Source of the DNA: a virus
Taxonomy: Duplodnaviria; Caudoviricetes
Reading direction: 5' to 3' (one strand)
IMG/VR virus record: IMGVR_UViG_3300020045_015549
Location: 1-37,032 of that record
Length of the DNA: 37,032 nt
Each line of letters begins with the position of its first letter. Position 1 is the stretch's first letter. Shown piece after piece: positions 6,122 through 28,583 of this stretch. The notes below the pieces were generated by a model. The model saw only the letters and a list, made by a program, of their open reading frames with translations. It made no database searches and was not told the origin of the DNA. Both the position numbers and the translations under genes were made by a program.

Positions 6122-6412
6122 CTATTTTTTGTCTCTCTTAGATCTGTTCTTGTAGGCTGGATGGGAAAATACTAAGCTTGCAAACTCATCGGGGTCGGTT
6201 GGAAGTGATTTGTAACCGGCCTCTACCAATTTAGGTTCCCACTCCTTCTTCAAACGCTCAAAACACTTTCGGTACTTTTCATCGAGGAGTACCCATTTAA
6301 GGCGTCTCTTCATGTCTTCTTCAAAGATCTCTTCGGGTATATCGTTCTGGATCACTTTCTTTTGGATCTCAGAGAGGCAAAAGCACTCTTGGTCATTTAC
6401 TGATATTTTCAT
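6122..6412 (-). CDS. Putative tail fibre-associated/assembly protein
   Basis: 96-aa ORF directly after tail fibre 2, with AGGA SD; function inferred from position. Confidence 0.5.
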   Translation of the reverse strand: MKISVNDQECFCLSEIQKKVIQNDIPEEIFEEDMKRRLKWVLLDEKYRKCFERLKKEWEPKLVEAGYKSLPTDPDEFASLVFSHPAYKNRSKRDKK

Positions 6413-6419
6413 ATTTTCC

Positions 6420-8180
6420 TTAACATACTAGGTGTCCGCCAAACCATGTTACTCTTACATCGGCGGCAATATCGTCTGTATCTCCCACTTCTCCCGTAAC
6501 TACAATTTTTACCACACACGTATCAGCAGCATCCATATCCACAATACAGGAAAGCGGAAGCGTTGTTGCGTTCGCGGCATTTCTCATGCCACCAATATTA
6601 TAATTGTTGGTTGCTATGTCTCTATTAGAAGTTACAAAAGAAGACTCTGAAGAAGTCGCCAAAGCCGTAAGGCCACTTACAGATATAGAAGAGTAAAATG
6701 AATACCTTCCTGTTACAGGAGCTGTGAAGGTGTTGGTCGCGTTATAGTCGCTGTTTTGATCAAAAACTTCTGTCGTAAAGTTTACTGTGACTAGGGTTCC
6801 GTTTCCAGTAACGTTATCCTGTGCAACCGAATGTGTTGCCAAGAACGCAGGTTGTAGGGGCATTGTGATTTCCCCAGCGGTGGTGGCTAATAAAACGGGA
6901 TTGGTAGCAAGCGCCGCATTAGACTGCGCTAACGCAAATCTATCACCATCCCCATTGTCTACTCCTATAGTCCAAGGAGAACCAGAAGGGATGTTAAAAA
7001 CATGCATTGGGCTTCCACCGGATGTCCCTCCTACGGAGGTTGTAAAAATAGCCGCTGAACCTGCATTCGTATTGTCACTATTGGTTAAGTCGGAAGTAAC
7101 GTTGCCACCTGCACTACTTCTTGTAATCGAAAGATCACCTAAAGGAAGAGTGACAAGACCAGCGGTGGAGATTGTCAGAGCGTTGGAAGTTCCTAATGCT
7201 GTTGAGGCGGCGATTACATAGGTGTCAGAGACGCTGTTATCTATCCCATGAGACCAAGAAGTGGCGCCAGTGACTGTAAAGGTCTGGAATGGATCTCCGC
7301 TAGATGCTCCCCCCGTAGTTATCTGAGAAAGAGCGTGGGATGCGGCATTCGTATTGTCTGTGTTGGAGATTGTCAGGGAGCGGGTAGCTCCAGCAGTGGT
7401 TGAAGTAAAACTAAAGTTTCCGACAGCAGAGGTGGCAAAAGCCGGATCGGCTCCAGCTGCTCCGACGAGTAGCTCTCCAGTACCCCCTACAGTGAGCTTT
7501 GTGATGGTAGTCGTTCCTGCACCGACAAGGAGGGCATGATTGGTGAGCCCCGTCAGTTGTGTTGTAAGAGTATTCGTCCCGCCCACACTCGTAATGCTAC
7601 CAGATCCCGCCATCGTCACAGCTCCGGCAGCCGTTGGGACGACTGGCGATGTACCGGAATCTGGCGTAAAGCTGTCTATCGCAGTAGAGCCCCCTACTAG
7701 ATCAATGTTGAGCGTCCCCGCTCCAGGGCTGATCGCAATCGTACCGCCAGTAGAGGTCAAAGCCGCAAAGACTGGATCGGCGTTATTGGAGCCGATAAGG
7801 ATCTGTCCGTTAGTCGCTACTGCTAGTTTTGTGATGGTGGCGGTTCCTGCGCCTACGAGAACAGCATGATTGGTGAGGCCTGTCAGTTCAGTGGTAAGAG
7901 TAGAGCCGCTCCCCCCAGTCGTAATGCTACCAGCACCAAGGAGGTTCCAGTTGTCAGCAGAGGGTGAAATGGGGGAGCCGGTTGAACCCGTGATCGTTAA
8001 CTCTTCTCCGGCGCTGATATCGATGGTGATGGTCTTGCCAGAAGCAGAGGTAGAGACGCCAGGGCCTCCGATGATCTCTAGATTATTGGAGAGAGGGACA
8101 GCAGTCCCGCTATCCGTCGTAAAGCTAGTCGGGATCTGGGGATTTGTGATGTTTACATCGATGAGACCGCCCTGACTAAT
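6420..8180 (-). CDS. Tail fibre protein 2 with C-terminal C1q/TNF-like domain (586 aa, ATT start)
   Basis: Frame is open from ATT at 8180; N-terminus (I)SQGGLIDVNITNPQIPTSFTTDSGTAVPL matches fibre 1; QPAFLA...FDQNSDY...FTAPVTGRYSF C1q pattern. Confidence 0.85.
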   Translation of the reverse strand: MSQGGLIDVNITNPQIPTSFTTDSGTAVPLSNNLEIIGGPGVSTSASGKTITIDISAGEELTITGSTGSPISPSADNWNLLGAGSITTGGSGSTLTTELTGLTNHAVLVGAGTATITKLAVATNGQILIGSNNADPVFAALTSTGGTIAISPGAGTLNIDLVGGSTAIDSFTPDSGTSPVVPTAAGAVTMAGSGSITSVGGTNTLTTQLTGLTNHALLVGAGTTTITKLTVGGTGELLVGAAGADPAFATSAVGNFSFTSTTAGATRSLTISNTDNTNAASHALSQITTGGASSGDPFQTFTVTGATSWSHGIDNSVSDTYVIAASTALGTSNALTISTAGLVTLPLGDLSITRSSAGGNVTSDLTNSDNTNAGSAAIFTTSVGGTSGGSPMHVFNIPSGSPWTIGVDNGDGDRFALAQSNAALATNPVLLATTAGEITMPLQPAFLATHSVAQDNVTGNGTLVTVNFTTEVFDQNSDYNATNTFTAPVTGRYSFYSSISVSGLTALATSSESSFVTSNRDIATNNYNIGGMRNAANATTLPLSCIVDMDAADTCVVKIVVTGEVGDTDDIAADVRVTWFGGHLVC

Positions 8181-8442
8181 AAATCACCTCTTCCCTATTC
8201 CACTTTTGCAATTCATCAGTAGTACACTCTACTTTGCAGGATATATAAGATTTAAGGTTGAGAGGATCTTTACTGTCTGGCATAGAAAATGACATATCAT
8301 AAACTCTCTTGCCCTTCAATCCCATGCTATTAGCCCAATCAAAACAGATTTTGCAAACCTCTTCATCTATTTTGCGATTTATAACAACAATGTTATGATG
8401 TATATATGGTTTTATTTTACCATTCCCCTTCGGGTGATGCAC
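8176..8442 (-). CDS. Hypothetical protein (start uncertain: GTG 8442 or ATA 8415)
   Basis: Fills the gap in the operon; its TAG stop overlaps the ATT of fibre 2. Confidence 0.5.
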   Translation of the reverse strand: MHHPKGNGKIKPYIHHNIVVINRKIDEEVCKICFDWANSMGLKGKRVYDMSFSMPDSKDPLNLKSYISCKVECTTDELQKWNREEVIY

Positions 8443-8917: not shown

Positions 8918-9115
8918 TTAACTCTCCATTATTCTTTTTATAAATTGTTCATGCTCAACTTGCTCTTTCACTCTATAGAGAGAACGTCTCATTTTTCGCA
9001 TCGCTGAGGAGTCTTCATTCTTAGCTTCTTTCTCAATGATATCAAGAATTAATTGAGCGTCTTTTTCGGCTACCTTTTGAAGGATCTCTTCCGGGTGATA
9101 AAGGTCGGTGATCAT
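8918..9115 (-). CDS. Hypothetical protein
   Basis: 65-aa helical ORF with ATGA overlap on the fibre 1 stop. Confidence 0.55.
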   Translation of the reverse strand: MITDLYHPEEILQKVAEKDAQLILDIIEKEAKNEDSSAMRKMRRSLYRVKEQVEHEQFIKRIMES

Positions 9116-12100
9116 GATAATCCCGTACTATAGGTGATCGTGAAATACATGATGCACGTCTCGATATCCATGATGTCGGAAGCGCTGGCATCGTCTTGTA
9201 TGATCCGTATCTGAACTACGGTAACGTTAGGAGCTATTTCAGCGACGCAGTAAAAGTTTGTCGTGCTGAAGATAGCCACGTTATCGAGTCTCACAGCTCC
9301 TATCGAGTTGAGATTGGAAATGTTGCTGCTCGTAAAGGGAAGTCCCGTAATAGACATGTTACCCGTTCCCGTTCCAACACCTACAGAAGCATAACCCCAC
9401 ACAGTGACTGAATTTCCGATGCGGATATATCTTCCGGCTGAAGCAGTCAGCGTTGGAGTACCAGCCGCAGAAGAAACACCAGGCGTCCAGGTTCCTTCTT
9501 CATAGACGCTTAAAACTGTTTCGCCAAAGTCTATCGAGTCGCAAGCCACGGTGGTAAAAATAGCAGGCGACGCACTGCTAGTACCGATCGTAGTGGCGTC
9601 GATCGTCCCTGCGTTGATATCTACGCGGGACATAACAATAGAGCTCGTCCCTTTAGGGGTAATGGTAATAGGGATGTTGGCGTTTGACCCGTCAGCAGAG
9701 AGAGTAGTGCCAGCTAAGGTCACTCCTGCTGCGGCTACGTTGGTGTCAAAAGTTGTAGCTAAGGAAGTGGTAGCCGTAGAGGTGGTAAAGATAGCAGTAG
9801 TGGCGCTTGATGCTCCGATGGTTGTTCCATCTATGGTTCCAGAATTGCAATCTATTTTTGAGATCACCACATTCCCCGTACCGTCAGGAGTAATATTGAT
9901 CGCCCCGTTAGCGTTCATCGAAATGATGGTATTCCCGTTGATGTTGAGATTATCTACGGTGAAGTCTGTGCAATCCAAAGTAGTAAATGTTCCCGTGGAA
10001 GAGGAAGAAAGCCCGATGGTTGTCCCGTCGACAGCCCCCCCGTTGATGTCCACCTTCGACATCACGACAGAACCAGTCCCCTTAGGAGTGATCGTAATAT
10101 CGATGGCTGCATCGGTTCCGTCGGCAGAGAGGGTAGTTCCTACAAGAGTAACCCCAGCAGCTACAACGTTCGTGTCGAAAGTAGTGCCTAAGATCGTCGT
10201 AGAGGTAAGGGAAGTAAGGCCCGTTACGGTTGTGTCTAGATTGAGGGTGACAGTAGAGCCAGCTCCGGTAGAGCCTATATTCGTTCCTCCTGCGATGGTA
10301 AGAACGCCAGCGGCAGGTGTAGCTGTTCCAGAGTCAGTAGCGAAGGAATTGGAGACCGCCCCGTCGGTTTCTATATTGATCGTTCCAGTCCCAAGGGTGA
10401 TGTCGATTGTCCCGCCCGTAGAGGTAATGGCTCCAGCTACAGGAGGCGCCCCTGTAAATCCTATTACTAATTGTCCATTTGTAAGAGGCCCCGCCCCTTC
10501 CAGGAAACCAGTAGCTCCATAATAGGTAACGGCATTCTGTGTGCCGTAGGATACACCTACTTTGCCCGAACCATTAGGAGTCAGTAAAATATTGCCGTTT
10601 ACGTTGGAGGAGCTGATCGTATTGTCATTAATATTGATGTTGTCGACATCTAAAAGCTGAAAAGTCGCTACTCCACTGATGATCGCAGCCTCGGTAATGA
10701 AGACGGCTCCAGCTCCTGCCGGAGTAAGGTTGATGCTTCGATTTGCATCCGTTCCCGAAGTGGCAATACTGTTGGATGTTATCGAAATATTAGTGGTGGT
10801 GGGAGCGGTAACAAAGGTACTTGCCGTAGCGGTTGTAAATTTTCCGGTAGTGGCTGACGTTGCGCCAATCGTCGTCCCGTCTATGGTTCCGCTATCTATA
10901 TCAACCTTCGACATCACGACAGAGCCAGTCCCTTTAGGAGTAATGGTTATGTCGATGGCTGCGTCGGTCCCATCCGCTGATAGGGTAGTACCTACTAGAG
11001 TAACGCCTGCGGCTACAACATTCGTGTCAAAAGTGGTTCCGAGAATGGTAGTCGAAGTGAGAGAGGTGAGCCCTGTTACCGTGGTATCGAGGTTGAGGGT
11101 GACGGTAGAACCTGCACCCGAAGAGTTGAGATTTGTCCCTCCAGCAATTGTAAGAGCGCCGGAGGAGGGTGTAGCCGTTCCAGAATCAGTGGGGAAGGAG
11201 AGTGCTACGGCAGATCCCGTTGTAAGTCCTAAAGTTCCCGCTCCTGTCGTAAAGGTAATAGAGCTGTCAGAAGAGGTAAGCGTTGCGAAGATTGGATCGG
11301 CTCCGGTAGAACCTAAAAGGACTTGACCATTCGTAGCTAAAGCTAGTTTTGTGATGGTGGACGTTCCAGCACCTACTAAGACGGCATGATTGGTAAGCCC
11401 TGTTAATTGCGTTGTAAGGGTGTTTAAAGAGCCTACTGTCGTGATACTGCCCGATCCATCCATATTGACAAGCCCGGCTGCTGTAGGCACGATAGGATCG
11501 GTCCCAGAGTCAGGGGAAAAGCTGTCGATGCCAATACTTCCGCCAGCGAGATCGATATTGAGCGTTCCCGCTCCAGGTGTGATGGTGATGGTTCCAGCGG
11601 AAGAGGTAAGGGTAGAGGCTACCGGAGCTACTCCCGTGCTACCAATTACGAATTGACCGTTGGCTAAAGTAAGAGCGGTGAGAGGTCCTGTAGCCGTTGT
11701 GCTGGAGATGACGACGCCATTCACATTGAAGGAAGTGGAGGCCGTCCCTCCTCCTACGATTTGAGCTGTCCCGAACGTTGGATCAAAAGAAGCTCCTTGA
11801 GAAATCAGAGGAATACCAGAGACTCCAGGGGAGACTTTTGTGATGGTAGACGTCCCCGCTCCGATTAAGACTGCATGGTTGGTGAGACCTGTGAGACCGA
11901 GCGTAAGGGTAGCTGTCGGAACATCGCCAGAAGTGGTAAAGCTCCCCTCTCCGATGATATTCCAGTTATCGAGGATCGGGACTATGGGATCTCCAGAGTT
12001 ACCCGTAATGGAGAGGATGGCAAGAGTAGATTCTACGGTGACGATGTTGGAAGCGCCAGTAGTGGTTACGCCTGTTCCTCCACGGATTTGGATGATGTTG

Positions 12101-12192
12101 GCTAGAGGAACAGCTGTGCCGGAATCCGTTTCAAAGGAGGTGGGTATGTGAGGGTTGGAGATGTTGACATCGACGATTCCACCCTGACTCAA
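9112..12192 (-). CDS. Tail fibre protein 1 (1026 aa, TTG start)
   Basis: Gly/Thr-rich repeated modules; C-terminal YEEGTWTP...GRYIRIGNSVTV...ITGLPF fibre-tip pattern. Confidence 0.85.
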   Translation of the reverse strand: MSQGGIVDVNISNPHIPTSFETDSGTAVPLANIIQIRGGTGVTTTGASNIVTVESTLAILSITGNSGDPIVPILDNWNIIGEGSFTTSGDVPTATLTLGLTGLTNHAVLIGAGTSTITKVSPGVSGIPLISQGASFDPTFGTAQIVGGGTASTSFNVNGVVISSTTATGPLTALTLANGQFVIGSTGVAPVASTLTSSAGTITITPGAGTLNIDLAGGSIGIDSFSPDSGTDPIVPTAAGLVNMDGSGSITTVGSLNTLTTQLTGLTNHAVLVGAGTSTITKLALATNGQVLLGSTGADPIFATLTSSDSSITFTTGAGTLGLTTGSAVALSFPTDSGTATPSSGALTIAGGTNLNSSGAGSTVTLNLDTTVTGLTSLTSTTILGTTFDTNVVAAGVTLVGTTLSADGTDAAIDITITPKGTGSVVMSKVDIDSGTIDGTTIGATSATTGKFTTATASTFVTAPTTTNISITSNSIATSGTDANRSINLTPAGAGAVFITEAAIISGVATFQLLDVDNININDNTISSSNVNGNILLTPNGSGKVGVSYGTQNAVTYYGATGFLEGAGPLTNGQLVIGFTGAPPVAGAITSTGGTIDITLGTGTINIETDGAVSNSFATDSGTATPAAGVLTIAGGTNIGSTGAGSTVTLNLDTTVTGLTSLTSTTILGTTFDTNVVAAGVTLVGTTLSADGTDAAIDITITPKGTGSVVMSKVDINGGAVDGTTIGLSSSSTGTFTTLDCTDFTVDNLNINGNTIISMNANGAINITPDGTGNVVISKIDCNSGTIDGTTIGASSATTAIFTTSTATTSLATTFDTNVAAAGVTLAGTTLSADGSNANIPITITPKGTSSIVMSRVDINAGTIDATTIGTSSASPAIFTTVACDSIDFGETVLSVYEEGTWTPGVSSAAGTPTLTASAGRYIRIGNSVTVWGYASVGVGTGTGNMSITGLPFTSSNISNLNSIGAVRLDNVAIFSTTNFYCVAEIAPNVTVVQIRIIQDDASASDIMDIETCIMYFTITYSTGLS

Positions 12193-12202
12193 GACTCACC
12201 TT

Positions 12203-12865
12203 CTATTTGTTGGCAAGACGCTCTAGTTGAGTATAGATGTTTTCAAGGTTCTTTTGGATAAGGTAGATGTCTTTCTTGTTGATCTCGATCTCCTTCATGG
12301 CTCCAGTGAGATGGATAGAGGACAGATCTAAGGCGGAATCAATCTCCTGTCTCTTGTTCCTTTCGATGGAAAGCCTGTCCATGCATTCTTTTTCAACCCT
12401 TGCAATCATCGATTGACATCTAGCCTCTAGAGACTCCAGCTTCTCTTCAAAATACTCTTTCTGACGGGAGAAAGACCCTTTCACTTGGGCAAGCCACTGA
12501 TCAACCTTATTCTCAAAAGCTTTGAACCCATCGAGGGTGAGGAAGTAAGAATCTCTTTTTTCAATTAGATCTCTTAATGATGAAAGACTAGATTTGCATT
12601 CCTTTTCTAGATCATGGATTTCTCTGAATGCCTGAGAAAGAGAGTCTTCTCCCTTCTTGTATAGAAACTTTATGTTCTCATGGAGCTGTGAGATAGCTAC
12701 TTTAGAATCTTCATGGCGCCTCGACACATTTTCATCGGCTTCTTTAAGCTTTTGTACTAAAGCCTCTATAGCAATATTGCATTCGAGAACAGCATCATTA
12801 TGGTTCTTGATCTCTTGCTGCACGATCAGGGAAAATTCTTTAGAAAGATCTTTTCTTTTGAGCAC
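12203..12865 (-). CDS. Coiled-coil protein
   Basis: 220-aa charged heptad-like helical ORF in the tail operon. Confidence 0.65.
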   Translation of the reverse strand: MLKRKDLSKEFSLIVQQEIKNHNDAVLECNIAIEALVQKLKEADENVSRRHEDSKVAISQLHENIKFLYKKGEDSLSQAFREIHDLEKECKSSLSSLRDLIEKRDSYFLTLDGFKAFENKVDQWLAQVKGSFSRQKEYFEEKLESLEARCQSMIARVEKECMDRLSIERNKRQEIDSALDLSSIHLTGAMKEIEINKKDIYLIQKNLENIYTQLERLANK

Positions 12866-12871
12866 TGCTCT

Positions 12872-13201
12872 TTATCCGTAGATGCATTCTATGTACACGT
12901 CGCCGCTCACAGGAGCCGTAACTTGCTTCACAGAAAACTGTGTGTCTACCGCCAACACAAACTTATCATCGAATTGAGGGTTGATGTTCGATTGAAGGTC
13001 GTACAGGCGGAAAGTCCCAGCAGGAAGGAACATCTCGTCTTGGGAAGTATTGGTCGTAAAATAGAGATCCCCCGCTGTGTTATTTGTGATACAAAAGGCT
13101 CTCACTGGATAGGCTGTCGGATCTCCAACAGAGGCATAGGAGCCAGAAATACCCGCAAATCCAAGCGTTCTTATCGCTTCAAAATATACTCTGGCTCCCA
13201 T
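12872..13201 (-). CDS. Putative small virion protein
   Basis: 109-aa beta-rich ORF in the tail operon. Confidence 0.6.
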   Translation of the reverse strand: MGARVYFEAIRTLGFAGISGSYASVGDPTAYPVRAFCITNNTAGDLYFTTNTSQDEMFLPAGTFRLYDLQSNINPQFDDKFVLAVDTQFSVKQVTAPVSGDVYIECIYG

Positions 13202-13406: not shown

Positions 13407-14024
13407 CTACTCTACTCCTACATGTTTCCAGGTTTTGTTGTTTTTTATATGGCCAATCAAATTTGCAGAAACCTTGAATTTCCGAGCCAATTCACTGGCT
13501 TTTACTCCATTAAACAAGGATTTTTTTATTTCTACAACATTTTCATGTGTAAGTTTGGATGTTCCTACTTTAGTGCCAATGGGGTTTCTCTTCTTGGATA
13601 ACATATCATTTACGTTATCCATGTTAGTACCTAAGAAAAGATGATCAGGGTTGGAGCATATTTTATTGTCGCATTTATGAAGGACGCAGAGATCATCAGG
13701 AATAGGACCTTTATGGATAATCCAAGAGGCTCTATGGCCTAAATTGGCGCCTAATGCCTTTCTACAGGTCATACGTGGATATCCTTTGCTGTCTTTCCCA
13801 TTCCAGCCCCAGCAACCTTCTTTTCGAATGACATGTTTTTCAAAGTTCTTTCTAAGTCTCTCTAGTTTTTCTTCTGGAGAGGATTGACTGATAATGAAAG
13901 ATGTTTTCAATAACCATGTGGATGCTTTCTTGTGTTTACATGGTCGGCTACAATAAGAAGATGGTTTTCTCCAATCTTCAACTTCGTAGTCTTTTTGGCA
14001 TGTTTTACAAACACATTGTCTCAT
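13407..14024 (-). CDS. HNH homing endonuclease
   Basis: CWGWNG...GYP...HRASWIIHKGPIPD..CVLHKCDNKICSNPDHLFLGT..DNVNDM; N-terminal Zn finger and C-terminal HTH. Confidence 0.9.
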   Translation of the reverse strand: MRQCVCKTCQKDYEVEDWRKPSSYCSRPCKHKKASTWLLKTSFIISQSSPEEKLERLRKNFEKHVIRKEGCWGWNGKDSKGYPRMTCRKALGANLGHRASWIIHKGPIPDDLCVLHKCDNKICSNPDHLFLGTNMDNVNDMLSKKRNPIGTKVGTSKLTHENVVEIKKSLFNGVKASELARKFKVSANLIGHIKNNKTWKHVGVE

Positions 14025-27733: not shown

Positions 27734-27942
27734 AAAAGAAAAAGCCCAAAGGGCGCATGGTGTCTGGCAAAAAGTACGCCCAGGACCTAGAGAAGTATGA
27801 CGATAAGGAAGCGGAAGTCGATAACCACCCATCCAGGCGTCCTAAGGACATTGCAGATGCCCTAGCCAAGTCTAAAGGCAGCCGGAGTAAGAAACCCAGG
27901 GTCAAGCCACAGAAGAAAATGTCCGGTCGCGGTAGGAGGTAA
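27730..27942 (+). CDS. Small highly basic protein
   Basis: 70 aa, K/R-rich. Confidence 0.65.
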   Translation: MKKKKPKGRMVSGKKYAQDLEKYDDKEAEVDNHPSRRPKDIADALAKSKGSRSKKPRVKPQKKMSGRGRR

Positions 27943-27944
27943 TT

Positions 27945-28583
27945 ATCGTCTGGAACAGCACTTCGCCCGATGGGAGCGTGTCAGTCAAAAATAATACGAC
28001 ACCCATGCAGCAAAATACGACCTATACAGAAACGGAGATGAATAAAGATCATTTCTGGAACATAGGCGTCAATGAAGATGGCCATCATCAATTCGCTCAG
28101 ATGCAGTCTACGAACGTAGATGACCCTACACTAGCTACCAATCCCACTTTAGCTACGGGAATGGATCTCGTCTATTATACACGAAAAAAGATTGCTGCTG
28201 AATCCACCTCTCAACAAGACATGCAACCATTCGCAAGGACTACGGGAGCTATCATGCAGCTCCTCGGTATCAGAGCGATGGCCTTATTTGATGTGAACGG
28301 AACCCTTGCATATGCTCATAATGTAACTAGCGTAACCCATCAAGCCACAGGAAGATATTCAGTTGCTTTTACCACAGCACTCCCATCTGACAATTATGCA
28401 GTGATCGGAGGAGGGATGGCCAACACTTCAAATTCTACCTTCACTCCCATGCAAGTAGGACAGAGTAGCGGAGCGTCGGTTGCTGCCAGGAAAAATACAA
28501 CAAGCGCCATCATTCTTTGCAGCACAAGCGGAGGAACTCTCACAGATCCTCTTCAAGCTTGGGTCATCATGTTTGGGGGATAA
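27945..28583 (+). CDS. Putative tail-associated structural protein (probable ATC start)
   Basis: AGGAGGT SD 4 nt before ATC 27945; in frame with track ORF 27978-28583; NVTSV....TGRYSVAFTTALPSDNYAV fibre-like domain. Confidence 0.7.
   Translation: MVWNSTSPDGSVSVKNNTTPMQQNTTYTETEMNKDHFWNIGVNEDGHHQFAQMQSTNVDDPTLATNPTLATGMDLVYYTRKKIAAESTSQQDMQPFARTTGAIMQLLGIRAMALFDVNGTLAYAHNVTSVTHQATGRYSVAFTTALPSDNYAVIGGGMANTSNSTFTPMQVGQSSGASVAARKNTTSAIILCSTSGGTLTDPLQAWVIMFGG

Follow-up and report, generated by a model that had tools for sequence, protein, structure and literature searches.

Translation starts at AUU are known from a few genes, and initiation at AUU behind a strong Shine-Dalgarno (SD) site has been described before; gene 26* of phage T4 provides an internal AUU start in a phage structural gene. 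In E. coli, infC and pcnB carry an AUU behind a good SD site with a T at -1, and discrimination by IF3 is expected there (PMC5499595), the AUU or AUC of infC being conserved for autoregulation. The output of AUU amounts to 1-2% of that of AUG in E. coli (10.1101/063800) and to about 10% in S. aureus behind an extended SD, where the chromosomal genes cvfC1 (AUU), ccpN and citZ (AUA) combine a weak start with such a site (PMC13009471). Another line of work concerns the base directly before the start codon. A U at this position pairs with A37 of tRNA-fMet, a quadruplet interaction demonstrated in E. coli with compensatory tRNA mutants (Hollerer and Jeschek 2023, PMC10018350), and U(-1) pairing together with a weak start codon has been reported for chloroplast petA (Esposito et al., cited in PMC10018350). 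In phage SPP1, the tail spike gene 21 starts at UUG and is the only gene of known function there without AUG (PMC6316719).

The stretch of DNA analysed here (the window) is a complete virus record of 37,032 bp with terminal repeats, which encodes a P22-like portal, a terminase and a major head protein. Genome-contig scans and INPHARED gave no match to a host or a cultured relative, and the Atlas clusters were all viral. Two long T/G/S-rich genes with a common N-terminus lie on the minus strand: fibre 1 (9112..12192), which starts at TTG in the window and in the closest relative (L001), and fibre 2 (6420..8180), for which the open frame, the alignment of homologues and a family survey point to an ATT start codon at 8178..8180. 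This ATT resembles those of infC and pcnB in lying behind a good SD with a T at -1 and in its expected discrimination by IF3, but the fibre codon belongs to a virion gene and switches among ATG, GTG, TTG, ATT and ATC, whereas that of infC is conserved; in addition, infC and pcnB have no T at -2, unlike the fibre leaders. The S. aureus genes share the combination of weak start and extended SD, yet they are chromosomal, and the main text of that report does not mention A37 (PMC13009471). The UUG of SPP1 gene 21 is canonical for IF3 and concerns a single gene, whereas a family-wide pattern is found here. Gene 26* is an internal second start of one gene, unlike the fibre ATT, which would be the sole start.

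The earlier note on this DNA had placed the beginning of fibre 2 at the ATT and not at the TTG at 7760, and the features on which it relied are all present. The frame comprises 587 codons between an in-frame TGA (8184-8186), two codons upstream of the ATT, and the TAA at 6420, and its first ATG, GTG or TTG lies 140 codons downstream of the ATT. The minus strand reads ...GAGGTGATTT ATT AGT CAG GGC, from which a gene of 586 codons with T/G/S-rich repeats and a C1q-like C-terminal domain would be translated. AGGTGA stands 3 nt upstream of both fibre starts (12196-12201 for fibre 1), and the N-terminus of fibre 2, ISQGGLIDVNITNPQIPTSFTTDSGTAVPL, is colinear with that of fibre 1; the two proteins have only their N-terminal 55 residues in common, and the motif that follows residue 14 is found at internal positions as well. 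The SD site of fibre 2, GAGGTGAT (8183..8190), includes the in-frame TGA, matches the anti-SD over 8 nt at an aligned spacing of 5 nt and, at -11.5 kcal/mol, ranks second of the 29 scored window starts after that of the ATC at 27945 (-11.6), compared with -4.3 at TTG 7760, all values referring to a generic anti-SD that may not be the host's. Calling genes from ATG, GTG or TTG loses the N-terminal 140 codons (7761..8180), a part of the protein that is under purifying selection: the L001 orthologue (583 aa, ATG start) aligns over fibre 2 residues 1-586, and codons 2-139 show a dN of 0.17 and a dS of 1.98 (dN/dS about 0.09). The conserved extension, the alignment with L001 from residue 1 and the codons found at position 1 in the family make it very likely that the ATT is the start of fibre 2. 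Judged from sequence, translation likely begins there with low efficiency.

Comparison with L001 also suggests how the site came about. At the position of the fibre's ATG the window has 237 extra bases with 33% GC, against 46%, which hold a 79-codon gene (8176..8415, minus strand) starting with ATA where L001 has the fibre ATG. The last codons of this gene constitute the fibre 2 SD. Its stop codon, TAG, shares one base with the ATT, so that re-initiation at fibre 2 is possible. The ATT site is likely the product of an insertion in which this short AT-rich gene landed at the old ATG, a direction that rests on one relative plus the GC content. The 79-codon gene has 36 homologues, and 8 of the 17 aligned ones have Met exactly at ATA 8415, the others having longer N-termini; 11 of the homologues gave no Pfam match, and the viral-contig search found no relative of the inserted gene. 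Because the ATA has an SD of -8.3, against -1.5 for the alternative in-frame GTG at 8442 (again with a generic anti-SD that may not be the host's), it may be a third non-canonical start in the window, less certain than the other two. The gene, which probably starts at the ATA, is 10-20 residues shorter at its C-terminus than most homologues.

The start codons of homologous fibre genes, whose tabulation the earlier note had proposed, were collected from 292 sequences (the window and loci, with six own-genome loci omitted) by means of the pattern xS[QH][AG]G followed by a T/G/S-rich frame, the first codon being left unconstrained. There were 136 distinct matches, 118 of them at most 45 codons from an upstream stop and the other 18 internal; three of the 118 (one each TTG, GTT and TTA) were removed because an in-frame ATG lies further than 12 codons upstream of them. 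The remaining 115 distinct N-termini start with ATG (79), GTG (17), TTG (8), ATT (9) and ATC (2), so that 104 have ATG, GTG or TTG at the position aligned to the fibre 2 ATT, and none of the 115 has ATA, ACG or CTG. The 18 internal matches use 13 different codons. About one in ten fibre relatives carries ATT or ATC at the start position, which is not a private error of the window. Weak start codons are indeed enriched in these genes: the ratio of ATT or ATC to canonical starts is 11 to 99 in the fibre family and 1 to 588 in genes outside it (p=1e-8), and GTG and TTG account for 25/99 and 35/588 starts, respectively (p=5e-8).

A tree was built from 79 of the 119 N-termini; it is short (76 columns), and its bootstrap is unsettled. 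The 14 ATT/ATC rows require 12 changes on it, of which no fewer than 9 are forced, compared with a mean of 13.2 after shuffling. These rows are therefore not one clade, although the tree overcounts the origins because some leaders are common to different fibres (L002/L027/L030/L043 and L101/L274). The codon also switches between close relatives: ATT in the window and ATG in L001, ATT in L274 and ATG in L250 (88%), ATC in L097 and GTG in L249 (81%). Within the second pair, L250:745 and L274:147 have 88% identical N-termini and related leaders, with ATG, GTT and a weaker SD in the former and ATT, GGGTT and an 8-nt SD in the latter; from the sequences, this difference looks like a recent switch.

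Genes outside the family served as controls. Among 21 other families, one of 897 gene instances had no canonical start before the conserved region, in a test able to detect start loss in 588 of 896 instances. This sole exception is a short tail-fibre-like gene in the window itself (27945..28583, plus strand), with an inferred ATC start behind the leader AGGAGGT-AATT (27934-27944). Its homologues begin M-x-W at the ATC, and leader and ATC are identical in the genome of L001 (G001, L298:1499-1501), an independent assembly that, at two other genes, has diverged from the window by a dS of about 1. In phages that bear ATT or ATC starts, all 54 testable control genes have ATG or GTG, which argues against host-wide laxity, and ARAGORN found no ATT-reading phage tRNA either in the window or among 22 related loci (partial genomes). 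A family-free screen gave 117 rows, mostly antisense shadows of fibre genes, from which seven sense-strand ATT/ATC cases were picked by eye; it added five fibre-like cases (L139, L158, L030, L043 and L203) and one portal gene (L203, minus strand 4343), which has GAGGTGACCT-ATT where its homologue in L055 has ATG. ATT is therefore not confined to fibres. The case at L158:11757 is an ATC start in another fibre-like family (xATNNSIN), and the habit is thus not limited to genes with xSQ[AG]G.

The leaders of ATT/ATC fibre genes differ from those of their canonical relatives in two respects. The SD duplex has a median of -10.7, against -7.1 for ATG fibres (p=0.002, with a generic anti-SD that may not be the host's), and its spacing is 4-5 nt in 9 of the 11. 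The second feature lies directly before the codon, where T occupies -1 in 11/11 ATT/ATC starts but 25/104 canonical fibre starts, and TT occupies -2/-1 in 10/11 but 5/104 (3/79 among ATG fibres); with shared leaders collapsed to 9, the enrichment over 78/553 control ATG genes has p=1e-6. In a wider set of 22 ATT/ATC leaders, T at -1 was found in 21 (against 20/79 ATG fibres) and TT in 19, the exceptions being the L203 ATT fibre, which has AA, and two leaders with CT. A held-out scan of DNA, in which only AGGT and the first codons were fixed and positions -5 to -1 were free, gave 62 matches. Seven were family members, three of them known already, and all four new ones read AGGT-GGGTT-ATT (TT 4/4); among the 55 non-family matches TT occurred in 2.

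In fibre 2 the TT lies at 8181..8182 and is complementary to A38/A37 of the initiator tRNA, with which it would pair. The U(-1):A37 interaction was shown for one base directly before the start, as here (PMC10018350), whereas in these leaders -2 is usually also T and six of them extend to GGGTT. A second pair, U(-2):A38, is plausible since A38 is a loop base. A leader fully complementary to the anticodon arm of E. coli metZ would read TCGGGTT upstream of the codon, and the contiguous complement in the 22 ATT/ATC leaders, in bases, is 0 in one, 1 in two, 2 in nine, 3 in four and 6 in six (the sixth base being fixed by the search pattern in the four held-out leaders), compared with 0 in 59, 1 in 17, 2 in two and 3 in one of the 79 ATG fibres. 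Both sites of the window, ATT 8180 and ATC 27945, score 2. The complement GGGTT-AT occurs in six ATT/ATC leaders, in different gene contexts, and in 0/104 canonical starts; these six may descend from one ancestor, though their flanks and upstream genes differ. It is conceivable, if doubtful, that such leaders form a graded second anchor for weak starts. This anchor would begin with U(-1):A37 and U(-2):A38 and extend, at its longest, to GGGUU-AU, whose 7 bases complement tRNA positions 35-41, so that pairing would have to displace the three G-C pairs of the anticodon stem. If true, the mRNA would capture the initiator tRNA in a natural step that circumvents IF3 proofreading or adjusts its stringency, and the phages would use this step to dose their virion fibres; the full pairing is given a low probability because pairing with 39-41 needs the G-C stem opened, which is rigid in the initiator tRNA (PMC4611024). 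A literature search, largely of open-access papers, found nothing on leader-tRNA complement beyond -1 or on a fibre family with recurrent ATT/ATC starts.

The N-terminal part of the protein is also predicted to have a structural role. Residues 1-165 of fibre 2 were predicted as a homotrimer with a score of 0.83, against 0.01 for the best control. In calibration, 20 of 30 solved homo-pairs came up to the mark, as did 1 of 23 single chains; the runs agree in at least 94% of contacts with a pLDDT of at least 89, and residues 1-13 are outside the listed trimer interface. The model thus predicts a homotrimeric shaft, as in trimeric tail fibres or spikes. At the other end, the C-terminus, a candidate distal receptor-binding domain, resembles C1q: the ESM Atlas relates it to viral C1q clusters at 0.97, and Pfam gives a match below cut-off (E=0.006). 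Monomer AlphaFold models were poor (pLDDT 49.5 and 40.5), and Foldseek returned no matches for them.

The reading that we prefer, with a probability of about 70%, is weak near-cognate initiation at the fibre ATT, aided by the SD and by extended codon-anticodon pairing and giving low output. The strong SD would position AUU in the P site, where U at -1, and probably also at -2, would pair with A37 (and A38) of fMet-tRNA and offset the lost third-position pair, so that the initiation complex would partly survive IF3. Ribosomes that finish the upstream gene at the overlapping TAG may add re-initiation at the ATT; an upstream stop within 15 nt is found in 9/11 ATT/ATC fibres and 61/79 ATG fibres, a similar frequency, so that it does not mark ATT in particular. 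The outcome would be that a trimeric virion protein present in few copies is made continuously in small amounts, and fibre genes would move freely along a scale ATG > GTG/TTG > ATT/ATC. Such a low supply is the simplest purpose; it is not strictly required, as L001 tolerates ATG.

Two alternatives would deny that the ATT is a functional start. One supposes an assembly error, with ATG in the real genome, or else a fibre 2 gene that has recently lost its start and is decaying or is translated from TTG 7760 alone. The earlier note had regarded an ATG in a close homologue as a sign of assembly error or private mutation, and an ATG is indeed what L001 has; the public contigs, moreover, end at 8165, short of the codon (X1 contributes contigs at 7558-7728 and 7764-8165, X2 and X3 contribute none, and 8178-8180 lies outside). 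The conclusion drawn from the ATG does not hold, however, since the codon in this family switches among start-capable codons, and the window's leader carries the TT signature of the family's ATT starts. The fibre 2 frame is intact, and TTG 7760, besides its weak SD, lies inside the predicted trimer, which leaves this reading highly improbable. Still harder to credit is a ribosomal frameshift or fusion, by which the upstream gene would be read into the fibre through a +1 shift near ATT TAT TAG. The upstream stop does overlap the ATT in the window and in L015, but elsewhere the main upstream gene mostly ends 5-26 nt before the ATT or ATC, the gene in question varies between cases and is absent in L001, and a fusion would neither limit position 1 to start-capable codons nor hold the SD spacing at 4-5 nt; the earlier note's preference for an ATT start over a frameshift is upheld.

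The other two alternatives accept the start and differ over what it is for. Under an IF3-responsive switch, the host's IF3 level (or temperature or growth state) would set the amount of fibre 2 relative to fibre 1 and alter the fibre on the virion. It draws on the discrimination by IF3 of AUU and AUC but not UUG starts (PMC5499595, PMC4611024) and on the block of M13 growth by IF3 overproduction (PMC2268962). The start codons are unequal at 11 of 17 two-fibre loci, nine pairing ATG with a weak codon and two TTG with ATT; the other six are ATG/ATG, near the eight expected from codon frequencies, and there is no fixed order, so that the proposal that TTG and ATT set the ratio of two alternative fibres is not supported. 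The conservation of the codon expected of IF3-regulated starts (infC, sigR) is absent at fibre 2 and seen only at ATC 27945, in one relative; free switching between close relatives, unlike infC, argues against a conserved IF3 sensor, and the AUU gene cvfC1 of S. aureus is described without medium-dependent change (PMC13009471). Such a switch is quite unlikely. A tolerated accident, in which the AT-rich insertion destroyed the ATG, a makeshift SD and ATT were good enough and weak starts persist since little protein is needed, overlaps with the preferred reading in mechanism and differs in purpose. The 237-bp segment lies exactly at the old ATG, fibre modules recombine often, as leaders common to unlike fibres indicate, and ATT/ATC starts are unclustered on the tree. 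Random loss, on the other hand, should give ATA and ACG (transitions) at least as often, and these never occur at position 1; the compensating SD and TT are nearly universal, and both ATC 27945 and the AGGTGGGTT-ATT leader have been retained in diverged genomes and in different gene contexts. We consider an accident of this kind unlikely, and retain, as the probable reading, weak initiation that limits the supply of the fibre.

If weak initiation is the correct reading, about twenty natural ATT/ATC starts can be compared with about a hundred canonical ones within one family, and the comparison reveals the requirements of a weak start, namely a stronger SD and U at -1/-2. It provides evolutionary support for extended codon-anticodon pairing and ready-made leaders for testing its reach (1, 2 or 5 bases). 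There is also a practical consequence, in that standard gene calling trims 13-140 N-terminal residues from about 10% of these fibre genes, likely including the end that attaches to the virion.

Several neighbouring genes on the minus strand deserve mention. A 96-aa gene directly after fibre 2 (6122-6412), with 15 matches among the loci, is a candidate fibre chaperone. The HNH endonuclease gene at 13407-14024 (Pfam HNH_3) has no match in L001-L008 and is likely mobile. Genes of 109 aa (12872-13201) and 220 aa (12203-12865) are conserved and usually stand before the first xSQ[AG]G fibre; in the primary set, the 220-aa gene precedes 8 of the 11 ATT/ATC fibres and the 109-aa gene precedes none.
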